64,000 nt of DNA from Escherichia phage RB43: sequence record NC_007023.1. One strand, 5' to 3'. How positions within the stretch are numbered: position 1 is the stretch's first letter; every line of letters begins with the position of its first letter. Positions 51,743 to 62,625 of the stretch are shown here, piece after piece. The position numbers and the translations under genes are program-made. Below the pieces are notes generated by a model. It had not been told where the DNA came from and ran no database searches. It saw nothing but the letters and a program-made list of their open reading frames with translations.

Positions 51743-52105
51743 ATGAAAGCGTATCAAATTTTAGAAGGTTTACATACTGGTACTATCTATCTGGAAGAAG
51801 GAAACGATGTTCGGATCGTAGTATCAAAAACTCTCGAAGTGGATTCAGTGATCGGAAAATCTCGCGTTGTACCATTCGCAAAACGTGAAGTTGATATTGA
51901 GTTTCAACCGACTGTTAAAGTTGAAGGTGGACAGCACCTAAACGTGAATGTGCTACGTCGCGAAACCCTGGAAGATGCTGTGAAACATCCTGAGAAGTAC
52001 CCACAGTTAACGATCCGCGTTTCAGGTTATGCAGTTCGCTTTAATGCACTGACTCCAGAACAACAGCGCGACGTTATCGCCAGAACCTTTACGGAAAGCA
52101 TGTAA
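51743..52105 (+). CDS. grcA: autonomous glycyl radical cofactor (GrcA/YfiD-like)
   Basis: C-terminal 70 aa nearly identical to E. coli GrcA as I recall it, including glycyl-radical signature RVSGYAV. Confidence 0.8.
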
Positions 52106-52329
52106 TGTCTATTGAAGATATCAAGGGGTATAAACCCCATACTGATGAAAAAATTACGATCGTGAATCGTATCAAAGCAGCAGAAAATGAACTGGGTGCT
52201 ATCCTGGATGATCTTGATAAACGATATTCAGGTGATTACGCCTGTTCAGATCTGGAATCACACACAGAAAAAGAACTTGATGAAATGCTCGAACGTACAC
52301 ATCAAATTCAATGGCAAAAGACCGACTGA
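52105..52329 (+). CDS. hypothetical protein (74 aa)
   Basis: ORF track; ATGA coupling to grcA-like gene. Confidence 0.45.
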   Translation: MSIEDIKGYKPHTDEKITIVNRIKAAENELGAILDDLDKRYSGDYACSDLESHTEKELDEMLERTHQIQWQKTD

Positions 52330-52392
52330 AAGAAGCCTCTATGTGGGCGTGTCGTGCGGTGTTCCAGCCAGAAGAAAACTATTAAAATCAAG

Positions 52393-52419
52393 CCGTTGCC
52401 GAAAGGTGACGGCTTTTTT
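52393..52419 (+). terminator. rho-independent terminator
   Basis: GCCGTTGCCGAAAGGTGACGGC followed by TTTTTT. Confidence 0.55.
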
Positions 52420-52485: not shown

Positions 52486-52543
52486 ACAACTTAACTTTGA
52501 GGATGACATTATGAACAACTTAACTTTGAGGATGACATTATGA
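52486..52543 (+). repeat. perfect tandem duplication of 29 bp containing SD and ATG
   Basis: ACAACTTAACTTTGAGGATGACATTATGA at 52486-52514 and 52515-52543. Confidence 0.85.
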
Positions 52544-53039: not shown

Positions 53040-53162
53040 ATGAGCAAAACCAAAGAATTAGAACAGAAAGTATTGGGGTTCATGAGTAACAGCGAAGATC
53101 GCTATGCGAAACACCTCATTGTTGAACTGATCACCGAGTACGCCGCCGTGACAAAGAGATAA
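53040..53162 (+). CDS. hypothetical small protein (40 aa)
   Basis: ATG 1 nt after upstream TGA. Confidence 0.3.
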   Translation: MSKTKELEQKVLGFMSNSEDRYAKHLIVELITEYAAVTKR

Positions 53163-53698: not shown

Positions 53699-53859
53699 TG
53701 AATTTTATCAACGCAGCATACAAGAAATTTTCGACGCGCTGGAAGCCTGGAAGACACGCACAGACGTTTCTATCACTTCGGCATCCAACGGTACTACATA
53801 CGACCGTTACGACCCTTCTCGTGGCTTACACAAGCCGTATGAGACTAAGGAATCAAAAT
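53698..53859 (+). CDS. small protein, frame broken near T-run 53703-53706
   Basis: ATG overlaps upstream TAA; coding-like -1 frame (QEIFDALEAWKTRTDVSITSASNGTTYDRYDPSRGLHKPYETKESK) ends TGA overlapping next ATG. Confidence 0.3.
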
Positions 53860-54154
53860 GAAGTATTACGGGTTTAAAACGAGTCATTACGGTAAAGCGT
53901 ACCGAACTGATAACATCGATCGCAAACGTCCGTATTATGATTCTCTGGTACGTGCAGGTCGTAAACGTGCTCGCCAGGAAGGGAAGAAGGAAGGAGAAGA
54001 CCGTGGTTGATAATTCAGATCTGAATGAAGCACTTCGTTCTATTACTGCGAATACTAAACCGAAAAAGAGAACAGGAGAAATCATCTTTTTATGTGTATG
54101 GTATTTTGTGTTTAGCTTTGTTGTTGGCGCTGCATTTGCGAAATGGTTCTTATA
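53859..54154 (+). CDS. small basic protein with C-terminal TM, possibly frame-broken near 54005
   Basis: MKYYGFKTSHYGK... 50 codons, then +1 frame encodes hydrophobic tail IIFLCVWYFVFSFVVGAAFAKWFL. Confidence 0.3.
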
Positions 54155-54595
54155 ATGGATATCGGATCAGGTAGTCAATACCCATCATGCGCATTGAGCA
54201 ACTTTGCACCGCATCCGTTTACATTCGACGGGGTAGAATGTGCATCAATGGAGGGCTTTTTACAAAGTCTGAAATTTAGCAATCCAGATATGCAAGCGCA
54301 TGTGTGTACTCTGGTCGGTAAAGCCGCGAAGTTCAAAGGCAAAAAGAAAAAATGGTGGACAACTCAAACCCTGTATTGGAAGGGTATTCCGATACATCGT
54401 GAATCCGAAGCCTATCAGATCCTTATCGAAAACGCGTACAATGCGTTGTTCCTGAATGAAGGGTTTCGCCGTGCGCTGAAAGCAACCGGAAAAAGTACCT
54501 TGACTCATTCAATGGGAAAGAATAAGATGAATGAAACGGTGCTCACTGAACGTGAGTTTGTGCGAAATTTAACCCGACTAAGGGATCTGTTATGA
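54155..54595 (+). CDS. NADAR (YbiA/DUF1768-like) domain protein
   Basis: N-terminal LSNFAPHPFTFDGVECASMEGFLQSLKF matches NADAR core pattern SNF..P....DG......E..FQ..KF. Confidence 0.55.
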   Translation: MDIGSGSQYPSCALSNFAPHPFTFDGVECASMEGFLQSLKFSNPDMQAHVCTLVGKAAKFKGKKKKWWTTQTLYWKGIPIHRESEAYQILIENAYNALFLNEGFRRALKATGKSTLTHSMGKNKMNETVLTEREFVRNLTRLRDLL

Positions 54596-54857
54596 GTGAA
54601 AAAGAAAGAGTAGAATGCGTGTTCCTGTTCAAAGGCGCGATTAATCCATTAGCGTTACTGTATGCACAACATGCATTACGTTCAACGTTGATTCAGAGTG
54701 TTATCTATAAAGGCAGGTGTGTATTATGTTACCATCGGCGCAAATAACATGGTTGTTATTGAATCCTATGTTAAGGAATGCGCATCAAACGGCGTTGTCT
54801 TTGATAAAGTCGATTTTGATGCTGGGGTAGATGCTGTTTATATGTATAAGGGTTGAT
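54592..54857 (+). CDS. small protein, frame broken near 54700
   Basis: ATG overlaps NADAR stop; two consecutive frames each coding-like. Confidence 0.3.
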
Positions 54858-55055
54858 ATGAGTTACGTAGTTTATTTTGATTGTTCGGATCTCGATCCGT
54901 TCGTTCTTCAACAGGCAAAGAAATATCATCAAGATGTCGTTGGCATTGGTGTAACAAATGATGATATGTTGTGCATCGAATTTGAATATTATCGGACATT
55001 TGAGCGTGAACAATTCCTGGGTGAATTGAATGCATTCAAAAGTACCCTTTCTTGA
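54858..55055 (+). CDS. hypothetical protein (65 aa)
   Basis: ATG (MSYVVYFD) after TGATATG. Confidence 0.4.
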   Translation: MSYVVYFDCSDLDPFVLQQAKKYHQDVVGIGVTNDDMLCIEFEYYRTFEREQFLGELNAFKSTLS

Positions 55056-55073: not shown

Positions 55074-55586
55074 TTGACAGAACTTGATGAACTCATTGAC
55101 AGTTTACGAATAGATTTCGAAGCTGGTAAGTGTTTCTGGGCTAAGAAGATAACCAAAAAGACTGTTGTTGGAGAAGAAGCGGGTTCCGTCCGTCCCGATG
55201 GTTATTGTAGAATCCGGTTCAAAGGAAAATATTACTACCGTCATCGAGTCATCTTTTATGCACGGAATAGGTTTCTTCCTGACGTTGTTGACCACATAAA
55301 AGAGGTTGACAATGGCGACGGTGTAGGTAATATTCAGGCAGCAACTCATCAACAGAATATGATGAAACAAAATATCAATTCGTTGAATAAATCTGGTTGC
55401 CCTGGTGTATCATGGGATACACAAAGAAACAAATGGCTTTCCACTATTAAAAAGGATGGAAAGAATATCTATATAGGTCGGTTTGCGTCTTATGATGACG
55501 CGGTTACTGCCCGAATTAACAAAGAAAAAGAACTATTTGGAAACTTTTATAATGAGCACAAACGCAAAGCCTGTAATTCTGACTGA
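55074..55586 (+). CDS. HNH homing endonuclease with AP2-like domain (paralogue of 16103..16600)
   Basis: YYRHRVIFYARNRFLPDVVDHIKEVD and GVSWDTQRNKWLSTIKKDGKNIYIGRFASYDDA. Confidence 0.7.
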   Translation: MTELDELIDSLRIDFEAGKCFWAKKITKKTVVGEEAGSVRPDGYCRIRFKGKYYYRHRVIFYARNRFLPDVVDHIKEVDNGDGVGNIQAATHQQNMMKQNINSLNKSGCPGVSWDTQRNKWLSTIKKDGKNIYIGRFASYDDAVTARINKEKELFGNFYNEHKRKACNSD

Positions 55587-56181
55587 TATTGACGGGATCG
55601 CCGTAAAATGGCAGTCGGGGTTGCCGTTCTTTTTGTCTAAACACAATATGCCTACTGATATTGCTCTGGACATGGTCACCGATGAAAGATTTCGTGATAT
55701 GACCGAAATATTCGGGTGTGATCACCAACTGGCTAAAATCCTGATGGAAGAATATAACAACAGTTCGTTTATTCGCTATCTAAGCGCGTATGACGATGCG
55801 TTAGTTGTGATCAACCGTCTGAAAGCCAAATATGATTTCGTCGCTGTCACGGCGCTGGGAACCACTCCTACGGCAAGTCTGAACCGTATTGCAAACCTGA
55901 ACACATTGTTCCCGTCTGCATTTCGTGAAGTGATGGTCGTCGGGCATGGTGAAACAAAAACACATCGTTACCTGGAAGCGAAAGCCAAATACGGATCGCG
56001 GTTGGTTTGCTTTGTTGATGACCTTGCGGTAAACTTAAACGAGTGTCATAACGTTATCAGTCAGTTGCCGTTATTTCACATGTTGCGTGGTGAACGTGAA
56101 CAACCAAATGTTCCGCACAGTATCGTAAAATCATGGTTTGAAATTGAAGAGAAATTAGATGATCTTATCAATATTGAATGA
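55552..56181 (+). CDS. HAD-superfamily hydrolase (possible 5'(3')-deoxyribonucleotidase)
   Basis: Motif I ILTDIDGI, motif IV CFVDDL; start overlaps HNH gene 3' end. Confidence 0.5.
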   Translation: MSTNAKPVILTDIDGIAVKWQSGLPFFLSKHNMPTDIALDMVTDERFRDMTEIFGCDHQLAKILMEEYNNSSFIRYLSAYDDALVVINRLKAKYDFVAVTALGTTPTASLNRIANLNTLFPSAFREVMVVGHGETKTHRYLEAKAKYGSRLVCFVDDLAVNLNECHNVISQLPLFHMLRGEREQPNVPHSIVKSWFEIEEKLDDLINIE

Positions 56182-57682
56182 ACTTGCATCGACTCTGAAA
56201 ACCTCAGAGAAGGAAGCAATTTTAAAACGTAATGCAAACAACCTATTGTTGAAAGAGATTTTCCGAATTACGTACACAAAACAGATTATGTTCTATGTGC
56301 GTAAGTTTCCCCAGGTGGACGGCAAACCAGGAACAACCCCGCTATCAAATGCAATCGCGGACCTGATGTCCGATTTAGCATCGCGGAAGTATACAGGTAA
56401 TGCAGCCCGCGATCGCCTGATGGATATTGTGTCATCAGTAAACGAGAACGATCGCGAAGTGTTGCGCCGTATCATTAACCGCGATCTTGAATGTGGTGCG
56501 GGTACAACTCTGCCAAACCGCGTATGGAAGAAACTTATTCCAGAACAGCCTCAATGCCTCGCTACGCCGTTTAGTGAAAAAGCCTTAAAACGTATTCGCT
56601 TCCCTGCTTACTCTCAGCTTAAAGCCGATGGTGCGCGTTGTATGTCGGATCTGTTAGAAGACCAGATTCGCAAAGCAACCCGCGCTGGAAATGAGTATAC
56701 AGGTTTGGTTGATCTGGATAAGGATTTGAAAAAGATCCGCGAATATCTGGGTTATGATGTTGTGCTGGATGGAGAATTGATTTATGTCCCTACTGAAAAA
56801 GCTGTTATCGAACCTGCAAGCGGGATTCCTTTTAGTCTTGCTGGGTTTATGGATGATGACGACGATGATATTTCTGGTCTTGTGGCAGATGTTCGACGGG
56901 AAACTACCGAGAACGAAACACTGGAAGAAGCGAAACGCGAAGAGGGCAACGGGATTGTAAACAAATCCCTGAAAGGCACTATTAGCGACGAAGAACAGCG
57001 CAACATTGTATATGTTGTCTGGGACATCATACCGTATGAAGTTTATTATGGCGATGCTCCGAGTGTTCAACCGTATTGCGATCGTTTGTCTATCCTGGAT
57101 GGTGCTCTGGCTGGTTCTGGGGTATCGTGTGTTAAGTTAATCCCTTCTCGCGTTGTGTATAACATTGCAGAAGCAAAACTGGATTACAACAACTATCGAA
57201 ATGACGGTAAAGAGGGTTCTATCCTGAAAAATACCGATTTCGTCTGGAAGGATTCACGCGTTGCGGACCAGGTTAAGTTGAAGAACAAAACCCCGATTGA
57301 ACTACGGATCATCGACGTATACGCGCATACCAAAGAACCCCATAAAGTAGGTGGTTTTGTGGTTGAAGACTTATCAGGCGAAGCCAGGACAAACACAGGT
57401 TCCGGTCTGACTGATACAGACTACCGCTATGATGAAGATGGTATTACGCGTGTGTATATCCCGTTAGAAGAACGCGGAGAACTGGATCGCGAATACATCA
57501 TGGCGAACAAAGATGACTATATCGGCGCTATCGTCGAAATGGAAGTTGACGGACTCCAGAAGTCTAAGACGCGTAAGAAGGGCGAACCTGAATACAGTTT
57601 CTTCTTACCAATCATCAAGAAGATTCGACGCGACAAGACCGAACCGGATGACATTCACGTTATCTTTGCAGATTTGTTTTAA
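56159..57682 (+). CDS. 30: ATP-dependent DNA ligase
   Basis: MILSILNELAS N-term, KADGAR adenylation motif, colinear with T4 ligase. Confidence 0.9.
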   Translation: MILSILNELASTLKTSEKEAILKRNANNLLLKEIFRITYTKQIMFYVRKFPQVDGKPGTTPLSNAIADLMSDLASRKYTGNAARDRLMDIVSSVNENDREVLRRIINRDLECGAGTTLPNRVWKKLIPEQPQCLATPFSEKALKRIRFPAYSQLKADGARCMSDLLEDQIRKATRAGNEYTGLVDLDKDLKKIREYLGYDVVLDGELIYVPTEKAVIEPASGIPFSLAGFMDDDDDDISGLVADVRRETTENETLEEAKREEGNGIVNKSLKGTISDEEQRNIVYVVWDIIPYEVYYGDAPSVQPYCDRLSILDGALAGSGVSCVKLIPSRVVYNIAEAKLDYNNYRNDGKEGSILKNTDFVWKDSRVADQVKLKNKTPIELRIIDVYAHTKEPHKVGGFVVEDLSGEARTNTGSGLTDTDYRYDEDGITRVYIPLEERGELDREYIMANKDDYIGAIVEMEVDGLQKSKTRKKGEPEYSFFLPIIKKIRRDKTEPDDIHVIFADLF

Positions 57683-57700
57683 ATAGCACTTTTTGTTAAA

Positions 57701-57737
57701 GAAGCCCCTTGCGTAAGTGAGGGGCTTTTGTTATTGT
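57701..57737 (+). terminator. terminator hairpin (GCCCCTTGCG...GGGGC) with embedded -35 TTGCGT and -10 TATTGT 17 bp later
   Basis: GAAGCCCCTTGCGTAAGTGAGGGGCTTTTGTTATTGT. Confidence 0.55.
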
Positions 57738-57774
57738 ACACACATCGAAACGAAACAGACAAAAGGAACATCCC

Positions 57775-58044
57775 ATGAACATCAATAAAGAACTCGAAGG
57801 CAAAGTAATCAACCTGGCAGACCGTGCGCGGTTTGAAAAGCTGGCTAATGGTGGTGAATCTCTGGGTGATGCAGTAGCATTATTCGAAAGACTTCGTGTT
57901 AAACGTGTTGTAGATGGCTGGGTTATCGCTCTCCCTGTTGCAGACGAAGACAAAGCGGTTTACGATCCTGTTGCCGATTCATGGGATATTGAAATCTGTC
58001 TGGTTAATATTGAAGTAGAACTTTGCTTCGAGGAAGAAAAATAA
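57775..58044 (+). CDS. hypothetical protein (89 aa)
   Basis: ATG preceded by conserved leader ACACACATCGAAACGAAACAGACAAAAGGAACATCCC. Confidence 0.5.
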   Translation: MNINKELEGKVINLADRARFEKLANGGESLGDAVALFERLRVKRVVDGWVIALPVADEDKAVYDPVADSWDIEICLVNIEVELCFEEEK

Positions 58045-58295: not shown

Positions 58296-58483
58296 GCAAG
58301 AAACTCGAAACATGGGAAACCATCAGCGAAGATCCGAATCTTCGTTGGTGTTGTGCGAAAACTGGTTTTGATGCTGCATGGGGTGCTACTCCAGAACAGG
58401 CGCGAGAAAACTGGGAACATCAGCAAATGTTCTTTGCGCATAAAACCCCATTCAATTATGACGGGAGTCACATAGCAGCATGA
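58292..58483 (+). CDS. hypothetical protein (63 aa)
   Basis: ORF track; ATGA coupling. Confidence 0.4.
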   Translation: MSKKLETWETISEDPNLRWCCAKTGFDAAWGATPEQARENWEHQQMFFAHKTPFNYDGSHIAA

Positions 58484-58788
58484 AAGAGCTAAATCTATCA
58501 AAAGAAGAAGTTGAAAAGCGGATTGCCGAAGGACTTGAAGTGATCAAGTCTATCGACTGGGGAAAAGTGATTGATTCAATGCCTGATATCCCTGATACGA
58601 TTTGCCTTAATTGTGGGCGATCCGTAATGGTTGGAAAGTGCTGTGATAATCAGAATATCGTTATCATGGAAAGGAAAGAAGTTTCACCGGAAGTGTGGGA
58701 TCAGATTCAAGAAATCATCAAAAACCCACCAAAACCGACGAAACGTTTACGCGAACTTATGAGCAGGACACCACGTTATGAAAAATGA
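58480..58788 (+). CDS. hypothetical Cys-cluster protein (102 aa)
   Basis: CLNCGRSVMVGKCC. Confidence 0.45.
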   Translation: MKELNLSKEEVEKRIAEGLEVIKSIDWGKVIDSMPDIPDTICLNCGRSVMVGKCCDNQNIVIMERKEVSPEVWDQIQEIIKNPPKPTKRLRELMSRTPRYEK

Positions 58789-60891: not shown

Positions 60892-62625
60892 TAATGGCTA
60901 AAAACCCATATTACAGCGACGAACAACGTCGCAGGATGCAAAATCCACAACAGCCACAACCCACCGTTCGTAAGATTAACGCAACGTTGGATAAGGCTTC
61001 AATGAACGAATTGAAGGACATCAACAATAACACTCTTGAAACCGCGCTGAATACGCTGGATATCAAAGAGGGTATGAAGTCCTTTGAAGATAGATTTAAA
61101 GACAAATTTGCAGGGTTTAAAGAGCAATTCGAACAGGATCAGGAACCTCTTGCAGAACAGTTACCTGATTTTGTCGGCCCCGCACGACCTGCATCACTGA
61201 CAGACAACAGCACAACCACTGTTGACAATTCCGTTAGTGTAAGAAACCATCCGTTTAGCAAGCTGGAAGAACATACAGGCACTATTGCAGAAGCGATAAC
61301 ATCGTTTATCGCTCTTGCAAGCAAGAAGCCGGAACCAGCACCTGAACCGGAACCCGTGCCGGAAGAAGAACCAGAAGTTGATAAGACGAAGAAGAAAATT
61401 CGTGATAAAGACAAAGACGAGAAGAAATTCAGTAAACGTGTATTAGCATTGCTTGATTCAATCAAAAACAATACATCAGGGATACTGTCTCGCTTTATTG
61501 GTTATTCACTCGAAGCACTGGCTAAATTCGCTAAGTGGACATTGATTATTGGTAGCATTGTATTCGCGATCGACGTTCTGGCTAAGGTTGTTCAGAAGTG
61601 GTTCCAGGATATTCTAAGCGAGGGTGAAGCCTCGAAAGAATTGTTCGGATCATATTTCAAGAACATCAAAACACTTGCTGAAAAAATCAATGATGGTCTG
61701 GAAAACTTCGATATGAGCAATCTGGGCGACTCACTGAAAAATCTCTTTTTGGAACCGTTCAAAGTTCTGGGTGATACGATTAAAACCGCTATCACTGAGG
61801 GTATCGGTAATCTGATTTACGCACTGGGTGAATATACCGGATCGGAAACCATTACTGATGCAGGGCGCGGAATGAAAGTATCTGCGTTGCGTGATAAACA
61901 GAAATATGGTTTAGAGATTGATCAGGATGACCTGATTATGCTCAAAGAGCAAGAAATTCAGGATCAGAAAGATAAGATTGTTGAAGCCCGTTCTCAACTT
62001 ACGGATCAGGTTAAAGCGACACAGGGCGCGTTCTCCTATAGTTTCGGGAAGCAGACAGACGCACAGAAAGCATTGTCTAAGCAACTCGAAGAAATGCGCG
62101 ATCGTGTTTCTCTGGAAGAACAGATCACGAAGGAGAAAGAAAAGGAACTCCAGATGCTGAAAGACAACCCTACTCTGTTAAAAGAGCAGGTGCAGAAGGA
62201 GAACACCGAGAACCGGAAACGTGTTGATGATTCTAAGCAGATCGAAGCAGCACAGCAGACAAGCTAAACCAAAAGCCGAAAGCGAGTTTGATCGAGGTGA
62301 AGAAATTTTGGGTAAAGACGATATCACCGCGAAAGATAAAGAGTTGATGGATAAGATCATGGAATCTCTTGAAGAGAAAAATGCTACCCAAAAACTCGAC
62401 GAAGACGATCGCGAAAAATATCGTGCGATGCTGGAACAATGGCAGAACAAGATTGCAGTAGTACCGGAAAGCAGCGCACCAATTGACAAGCAACCGGAAC
62501 CTGTGAGAGCACCAGTTGATGCAGTTGCTTCTAACAACGTCCAGGTAAACCAAAAAACAGTTAATAACATGGTACAACATTCAGTACAACGCACTGAACG
62601 TAAGCCATTGATTGCATTAGCATAA
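60888..62625 (+). CDS. 29: baseplate hub / tail-length protein gp29-like, frame broken near 62259-62267
   Basis: 459-aa ORF 60888..62267 plus +1 frame continuation to TAA 62623-62625 totals about 579 aa; coiled coil and hydrophobic segment; precedes gp48/gp54. Confidence 0.55.

Follow-up and report, generated by a model that had tools for sequence, protein, structure and literature searches.

The gene and its neighbours

We analysed a stretch of 64,000 nt from the genome of Escherichia phage RB43 (NC_007023.1; the window), a Pseudotevenvirus of the Straboviridae. The gene of interest, here called adfN, opens with an ATG at 54155-54157 and closes with a TGA at 54593-54595, and its translation begins with MDIGSGSQYPSCALSNFAPHPFTFDGVECASMEGFLQSLKF (Table 1). 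The first-pass annotation, made from the letters alone, had placed an ORF with a NADAR core motif at this site; its coordinates are exact, and the quoted motif occurs verbatim at the N-terminus. A second in-frame ATG lies upstream, at 54143. As M1, I3, and G4 of the RB43 protein are invariant in an alignment of 30 homologues, and as the record of RB43-GVA annotates the identical start (CDS 53758..54198, CCK73940.1, product ‘protein of unknown function’), the start at 54155 is preferred. The ORF is intact and has the same sequence in both RB43 records, to which the surrounding 4.7 kb are 99.9% identical. At its start, the ATG overlaps the stop codon of the upstream ORF (TAATG), and at its end, the stop codon overlaps the start of the next ORF (ATGA), an arrangement typical of translationally coupled phage accessory genes.

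adfN is part of a packed run of mostly overlapping small ORFs on the plus strand, for which ‘accessory small-gene region’ was an apt description. As in T4, the run precedes a homologue of gene 30.2 and the DNA ligase gene, which places adfN at the expected position in the 30.x cluster. RB43 differs from T4 by three extra ORFs inserted between the homologues of 30.3 and 30.2, one of which is of the AP2/HNH endonuclease type. This 170-aa ORF, with an AP2-domain match under the cut-off, is probably a mobile endonuclease insertion; in the related phage Miller, an ‘HNH homing endonuclease’ is annotated inside the matched 4.7-kb region. We also considered an Alt-like ADP-ribosyltransferase gene beside the ligase, as present in T4, but RB43 has baseplate and tail genes there instead. 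A Pfam scan of the neighbouring ORFs from 51.7 to 63.7 kb, except for a few small ones at about 52.5-53.2, 53.7-54.0, and 58.1-58.5 kb, gave no ART or DarT match. Two kb upstream of adfN, an Acb2/Tad1 hairpin domain marks the product of a 74-aa ORF as a probable cyclic-nucleotide sponge directed against CBASS or Thoeris, which would make this ORF a second counter-defence gene.

Table 1. Features in the window, in order of position; residue numbers refer to the RB43 protein.
Feature	Position	Strand	Observation
120-aa ORF	51743..52105	+	C-terminal glycyl-radical motif RVSGY; PF01228 (Gly_radical), E 2.8e-18
74-aa ORF	52105..52329	+	PF24729 ‘Acb2/Tad1 hairpin domain’, E 6e-8, 33.2 bits (cut-off 27)
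Terminator-like hairpin	52390-52415		
Perfect 29-bp tandem duplication	52486..52543		acaacttaactttgaggatgacattatga, twice; just past the preceding hairpin
adfN	54155..54595 (incl. stop codon)	+	Gene 30.3 orthologue; 146-aa minimal protein with predicted NADAR fold
Glu33 codon (GAG)	54251..54253	+	Counterpart of T4 E36, YbiA E47, PnNADAR E43, E. coli C7 NADAR E88 (distal-ribose contact)
Lys40 codon (AAA)	54272..54274	+	Counterpart of T4 K43, YbiA K54, PnNADAR K50, E. coli C7 K95 (phosphate and adenine contact)
Lys-rich loop K56-W68	54320..54358	+	KAAKFKGKKKKWW; A-x-x-x-G-[KR] motif and Trp67
His118 codon (CAT)	54506..54508	+	‘Phage NADAR’ histidine in the last-strand motif L-T-H-S-M-G
C-terminal alpha-helix, residues 132-145	54548..54589	+	Predicted helix, pLDDT 92-94
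Gene directly downstream of adfN	54592..54856	+	Two ORFs of 51 and 52 aa
170-aa ORF	55074..55586	+	Weak AP2-domain match, E 8.6e-4, under cut-off; between 30.3 and 30.2 homologues
30.2 homologue	55567..56157		48% identity
DNA ligase	56159..57682		39% identity
Repeated element (~100 bp)	57682..57790		
Terminator-like hairpin after ligase	57700-57729		Strong; within the repeated element
102-aa ORF	58480..58788	+	Marginal TacA1-like antitoxin match, PF08681, E 4.8e-4, 20.5 bits (cut-off 21)

Positions 401-64000 of the window were compared with positions 1-63603 of RB43-GVA, revealing 23 differences, of which 21 are single-base indels (e.g., at 53139, 53160, 53719, 55051-55052, and 62260) and 2 are substitutions; none lies within adfN. 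Such a predominance of indels points to miscalled bases in one RB43 sequence or the other. The one-base indels affect the calling of small ORFs near adfN. An extra G at 54712 relative to RB43-GVA splits the gene directly downstream of adfN. Its intact 87-aa product recurs with 99% identity or more in 101 related phage records, and the split therefore stems from a sequencing error or from a frameshift specific to the stock. Further away, the indel at 62260 breaks up a CDS of 576 aa, leaving ORFs of 459 and 134 aa. No Pfam match was obtained for this CDS; its baseplate and tail neighbours make a gp29-like baseplate hub gene a possibility.

Orthology to T4 gene 30.3

The RB43 protein matched the Pfam family PF08010 (Phage_30_3, ‘Bacteriophage protein GP30.3’) over profile positions 2-138 of 138 with 189.8 bits (E 2.5e-56; curated cut-off 36 bits), and PHROG 652 with an E-value of 2e-52. 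A BLASTP alignment with T4 gp30.3 covered the whole length and reached the last residue of both proteins (42% identity, E 1e-35), which are similar in size (146 aa in RB43 and 152 aa in T4). By tblastn, 1,506 phage records contain a match, which spans 80% or more of the length in 1,501. Most of these phages are T4-like and infect Escherichia, Klebsiella, Shigella, Aeromonas, Acinetobacter, and Vibrio. Protein identity is at least 90% in 171 related phage records. A search of 1.84 billion proteins further returned 1,167 representatives of 50%-identity clusters (E ≤ 1e-3). The PF08010 score and the numbers of phage records and cluster representatives lie far above chance, confirming adfN as a real gene. 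Judged by these alignments, it is the orthologue of T4 gene 30.3 (AdfN), a counter-defence gene that has already been characterised.

Some metagenomic relatives (P0249, P0291, P0277, P0298, and P0306) comprise two or three tandem gp30.3 domains, or fusions with Lgt, BspA-type leucine-rich repeats, or an FtsW-like membrane region. As a clue to function, these proteins were set aside: the partner domains are uninformative, and the architectures may in part be gene-calling artefacts.

A predicted NADAR fold

Direct searches with NADAR profiles gave little. The Pfam profile PF08719 (NADAR) did not match the RB43 protein at E ≤ 1, and TIGR02464 matched residues 11-49 only, with 17.7 bits (E 0.0033), far under its cut-off of 73.7 bits. 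Searches of PDB sequences with the RB43 protein alone, or with a shallow family profile, returned nothing relevant. Among the PADLOC models, the sole match to the RB43 protein was a marginal one to the candidate family PDC-M42C (E 0.0049), and T4 gp30.3 matched none of them.

Comparisons between profiles and between structures were more informative. An alignment of a 42-sequence gp30.3 profile with a 28-sequence YbiA/NADAR profile by hhalign reached a probability of 98.1% (E 1.4e-13, 136 columns), and an HMM of the 42 diverse gp30.3 sequences found YbiA (2b3w) as its top match among PDB sequences (E 0.0094). Seven of the 42 family members show sub-threshold matches to PF08719, and some YbiA-like proteins match both PF08010 and PF08719, which argues that the two families grade into each other. 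An AlphaFold2 model of the RB43 protein (mean pLDDT 87.3, pTM 0.84) displays the helical core and flanking small beta-hairpins of the YbiA fold, and when it was applied to Foldseek, the three solved NADAR structures formed the top three matches. Together, these results support a NADAR fold for the modelled protein. The first-pass annotation had regarded the lack of a NADAR profile hit, or the loss of catalytic residues, as speaking against its proposal. Taken literally, PF08719 is indeed blank and TIGR02464 weak, but profile–profile and fold comparisons identify a NADAR, and the catalytic residues E33 and K40 are kept, as is the phage-type H118.

Catalytic and ligand-binding residues

Glu33 and Lys40, each conserved in 40 of the 42 gp30.3 family members, are seven residues apart as in T4. 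The ADP-ribose-binding residues E33, K40, G62/K63, and W67 fall in the columns of PnNADAR E43, K50, G78/R79, and W89, a register obtained by hhalign to YbiA and then from YbiA to 8bau, i.e., by sequence alignment and not by superposed coordinates. Within the Lys-rich loop, A58-K59-x-x-G62-K63...W67 aligns with A-K75-x-x-G78-R79...W89 of PnNADAR, in which G78/R79 and W89 contact the pyrophosphate (Schuller et al. 2023). G62 occurs in 40 and W67 in 41 of the 42 family members, and position 59 is Lys or Arg in 37. This loop is the weakest part of the RB43 model (pLDDT 53 for residues 61-70). Position 118 is a His in 40/42 members and invariant in two of the alignments. The phage NADAR histidine defines the family and replaces the Glu of the YbiA family and the Asp of the DarG1 family; in the hhalign alignment, however, H118 lies one residue past YbiA E124, next to a gap and facing H125, so that its structural equivalence to the Glu is putative. 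The C-terminal helix is intact in RB43, as the alignment extends to the final residue of T4 gp30.3.

In these respects, T4 AdfN resembles the RB43 protein closely: both belong to PF08010 and share the catalytic Glu and Lys, the phage-type His, the C-terminal helix, and a minimal core free of extensions. The loop sets them apart, as T4 AdfN has Gln and Ala where RB43 has Lys59 and Trp67. Bacterial NADARs are more distant. DarG1, i.e., the BC4488-type NADARs linked to DarT1 (E. coli C7; Geobacter lovleyi, PDB 8BAT), carries a catalytic Asp in the last strand, whereas RB43 has His118. The 219-aa protein of 8BAT has an N-terminal helix/sheet extension, which is missing from the 146-aa core of RB43, and the two share about 16% identity in the structural alignment. 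Furthermore, DarG1 is encoded with DarT1, while the RB43 gene has no DarT match in the neighbouring ORFs scanned. Compared to E. coli YbiA (PDB 2B3W), the Glu-His and the ND.YWG segment give way in RB43 to a shorter T-H-S-x-G motif; the two proteins also differ in their matches to PF08719 and TIGR02464, of which the RB43 protein shows none to the former directly and a far sub-cut-off one to the latter, and in biological role.

Function in light of the T4 orthologue

De Souza and Aravind, as cited in later work, classed gp30.3 proteins as phage NADARs. NADARs hydrolyse guanine-ADPr and serve as DarT1 antitoxins (Schuller et al. 2023). In a 2024 study, T4 gp30.3 removed G-ADPr but not T-ADPr in vitro and did not rescue uninfected cells from DarT1 toxicity. 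Johannesman et al. (bioRxiv 2024; Nat Commun 2025) renamed the protein AdfN, for anti-DarT factor NADAR, and showed that it has a NADAR fold and acts as a DNA ADP-ribosylglycohydrolase specific for guanine. Without adfN, T4 and T2 become sensitive to DarTG1 by a factor of about 10^4, RB69 is rescued on DarTG1 by ectopic AdfN, and purified T4 AdfN strips ADP-ribose from DarT1-modified DNA (Johannesman et al., Nat Commun 2025). E36A, K43A, and an RB69-type C-terminal truncation each impair T4 AdfN (Johannesman et al., Nat Commun 2025), and mutagenesis has also been reported for the E88/K95 counterparts of the E. coli C7 NADAR (Schuller et al. 2023). The RB69 allele itself has a frameshift by which the last 15 residues are lost, and T4 AdfN truncated in this way is less active (Johannesman et al.). 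In the table of a 2026 study, C-ADPr is reversed only by enzymes of the NADAR family and the YbiA type, and phage NADAR is absent from this group.

The first-pass annotation had proposed a NADAR that reverses DarT-type guanine ADP-ribosylation as phage counter-defence. This activity has been demonstrated for the T4 orthologue, and the full-length similarity, the retained catalytic residues, and the predicted fold suggest that it applies to RB43 as well; we infer both the enzymatic activity and the anti-DarTG1 phenotype from T4 by orthology. The idea was hence right but not new, as the gp30.3 family and its function are already published. Its range, given as ‘DarTG-like systems’, holds for DarTG1, which modifies guanine, and not for DarTG2, which modifies thymine and is outside the activity of T4 AdfN (Johannesman et al., Nat Commun 2025). 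Our literature search found no paper naming both RB43 and DarTG.

The RB43 protein is most likely a stand-alone minimal NADAR-fold hydrolase that counters DarTG1 as T4 AdfN does. In a host carrying DarTG1, DarT1 would ADP-ribosylate guanines in the RB43 DNA and thereby block replication. AdfN made during infection, probably by coupled translation within the string of overlapping small genes up to the ligase terminator, would cleave the N-glycosidic bond of guanine N2-ADP-ribose. In the active site, Glu33 and His118 would flank the distal ribose, while Lys40, Gly62/Lys63, and Trp67 would keep the diphosphate and the adenine in place. The unmodified, replicable template would be restored and replication could go on, so that AdfN may in effect be a phage-borne ‘orphan antitoxin’. 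Against an active AdfN in RB43 speak the identity of only 42%, the missing direct match to the Pfam NADAR profile, and the marginal PADLOC match. In addition, T4 AdfN is fully effective only in a T-even infection, for which a T-even factor is suspected (Johannesman et al., Nat Commun 2025), and activity in a Pseudotevenvirus setting is therefore not to be assumed. A gene that most of the roughly 1,500 related phage records list as ‘hypothetical protein’ can be labelled with confidence as an anti-DarTG1 DNA de-ADP-ribosylase.

By tblastn, and in agreement with the literature, homologues of gp42 (the dCMP hydroxymethylase of T4), beta-glucosyltransferase, and AdfA are missing from the RB43 genome, and the sole match to gp42 is the 285-aa thymidylate synthase of RB43 (24.5% identity). 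The 2024 preprint had tied the context dependence of T4 AdfN to hydroxymethylated DNA (Johannesman et al., bioRxiv 2024), and an AdfN adapted to hydroxymethylcytosine would make the copy in RB43 surprising. We dropped this idea, as T4-GT7, whose DNA is fully unmodified, remains dependent on AdfN (Johannesman et al., Nat Commun 2025), which argues that DNA modification is irrelevant to AdfN. An adfN gene in a T4-like phage devoid of cytosine-hydroxymethylation genes fits this published independence. Other phage-encoded guanine-specific anti-DarTG1 NADARs, AdfN(Bas32) and AdfN(Bas60) of T5-like phages and Vequintavirinae, belong to other, independently acquired NADAR branches and, differing from T4 AdfN, neutralise DarT1 without phage infection, according to the published account.

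Alternative functions

Four other explanations were weighed, all of which we consider less likely than an AdfN-type role against DarTG1. The RB43 protein might be an active guanine-ADPr hydrolase whose target is another ART or substrate, such as ADP-ribosylated RNA or the products of pierisin/ScARP- or YarT-like toxins. In its favour, T4 AdfN also reverses ADP-ribosylation of guanosine on RNA, NADARs of all families hydrolyse the G-ADPr made by ScARP, a YarT-YbiA toxin-antitoxin pair exists, and the specificity of NADARs in vivo differs from their activity in vitro. However, the sole phenotype found in T4 is the loss of DarTG1 resistance by about four logs, and our search of the literature found no documented RNA-targeting, guanine-specific anti-phage ART; we regard such a target as unlikely. 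Still less probable is the hydrolysis of soluble ADP-ribose-derived molecules, like immune signals or by-products of NAD+ cleavage or RNA repair, instead of macromolecular adducts. Soluble ADPr derivatives have been proposed as the main targets of phage NADAR domains in general (Iyer et al. 2022), and the Acb2/Tad1 hairpin-domain gene, encoding the domain of cyclic-nucleotide signal sponges, lies in the same gene string. Yet DNA adducts are the substrate of the T4 orthologue in vitro as well as in infected cells, and no gp30.3-type protein is known to have a soluble one.

The frameshifted allele of RB69 raises the question of whether the RB43 copy could be a conserved but weakened or inactive relic, and several genes neighbouring adfN do contain one-base indels. 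We consider this very improbable, as the ORF is undisrupted in both RB43 sequences and its product aligns with T4 AdfN in full, including the final residue, all key residues are kept, and closely related copies recur in the 171 phage records mentioned above. Lowest of all we rate a YbiA-like housekeeping N-glycosidase acting on reactive intermediates of the riboflavin pathway, for which there is hardly any room: the TIGR02464 score is far below the cut-off, the Glu that defines YbiA is not conserved, the motif contains His118, the ND.YWG segment is absent, and adfN is located among accessory phage genes and not metabolic ones.

Lys59 and Trp67

With regard to the AdfN-type role, RB43 adfN opens no new question, and the only forward-looking point is the difference from T4 at positions 59 and 67. 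Position 59 is Lys in RB43, in 33 of the 42 family members, and in RB49 and phages of Acinetobacter, Proteus, and Pseudomonas, and Arg in four more of the 42; Gln is found in T4 and a Gaprivervirus. Trp67, replaced by Ala in T4 and the Gaprivervirus, is also missing from the proteins of RB49 and of the Acinetobacter and Proteus phages. K59 aligns with PnNADAR K75 and with K115 of the E. coli C7 NADAR, which is dispensable for catalysis and essential for the neutralisation of DarT1 in cells (Schuller et al. 2023). From K59 and W67, in a loop modelled at pLDDT 53, it is conceivable, albeit rather doubtful, that the RB43-type protein represents the ancestral, self-sufficient form of AdfN. If the two residues govern the recognition of the DNA substrate in vivo, this could explain both the T-even dependence of T4 AdfN and its failure as an antitoxin; the RB43 protein would then neutralise DarT1 alone and protect unrelated phages. 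K59 and W67 offer a cheap, testable handle on the dependence of T4 AdfN on the phage context.

Other features of the region

The 120-aa ORF directly upstream of the hairpin-domain gene looks like a GrcA/YfiD-type ‘spare part’ protein, and T4 Y06I is comparable to it. Downstream of the ligase gene, the antitoxin match of the 102-aa ORF falls just under the cut-off. A scan for sigma-70 promoters found 9 sites compared to 13.3 +/- 3.8 in shuffled sequence, and we claim no promoter. Relatives of the repeated element behind the ligase, about seven in number and 75-97% identical, are spread over both strands of the RB43 genome; the element resembles the ‘PeSL’ promoter/stem-loop cassettes known from RB43-like phages. 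Finally, the 29-bp tandem duplication doubles a Shine-Dalgarno sequence together with an ATG, and its first copy opens a mini-ORF of 10 codons, the stop codon of which overlaps the second ATG.
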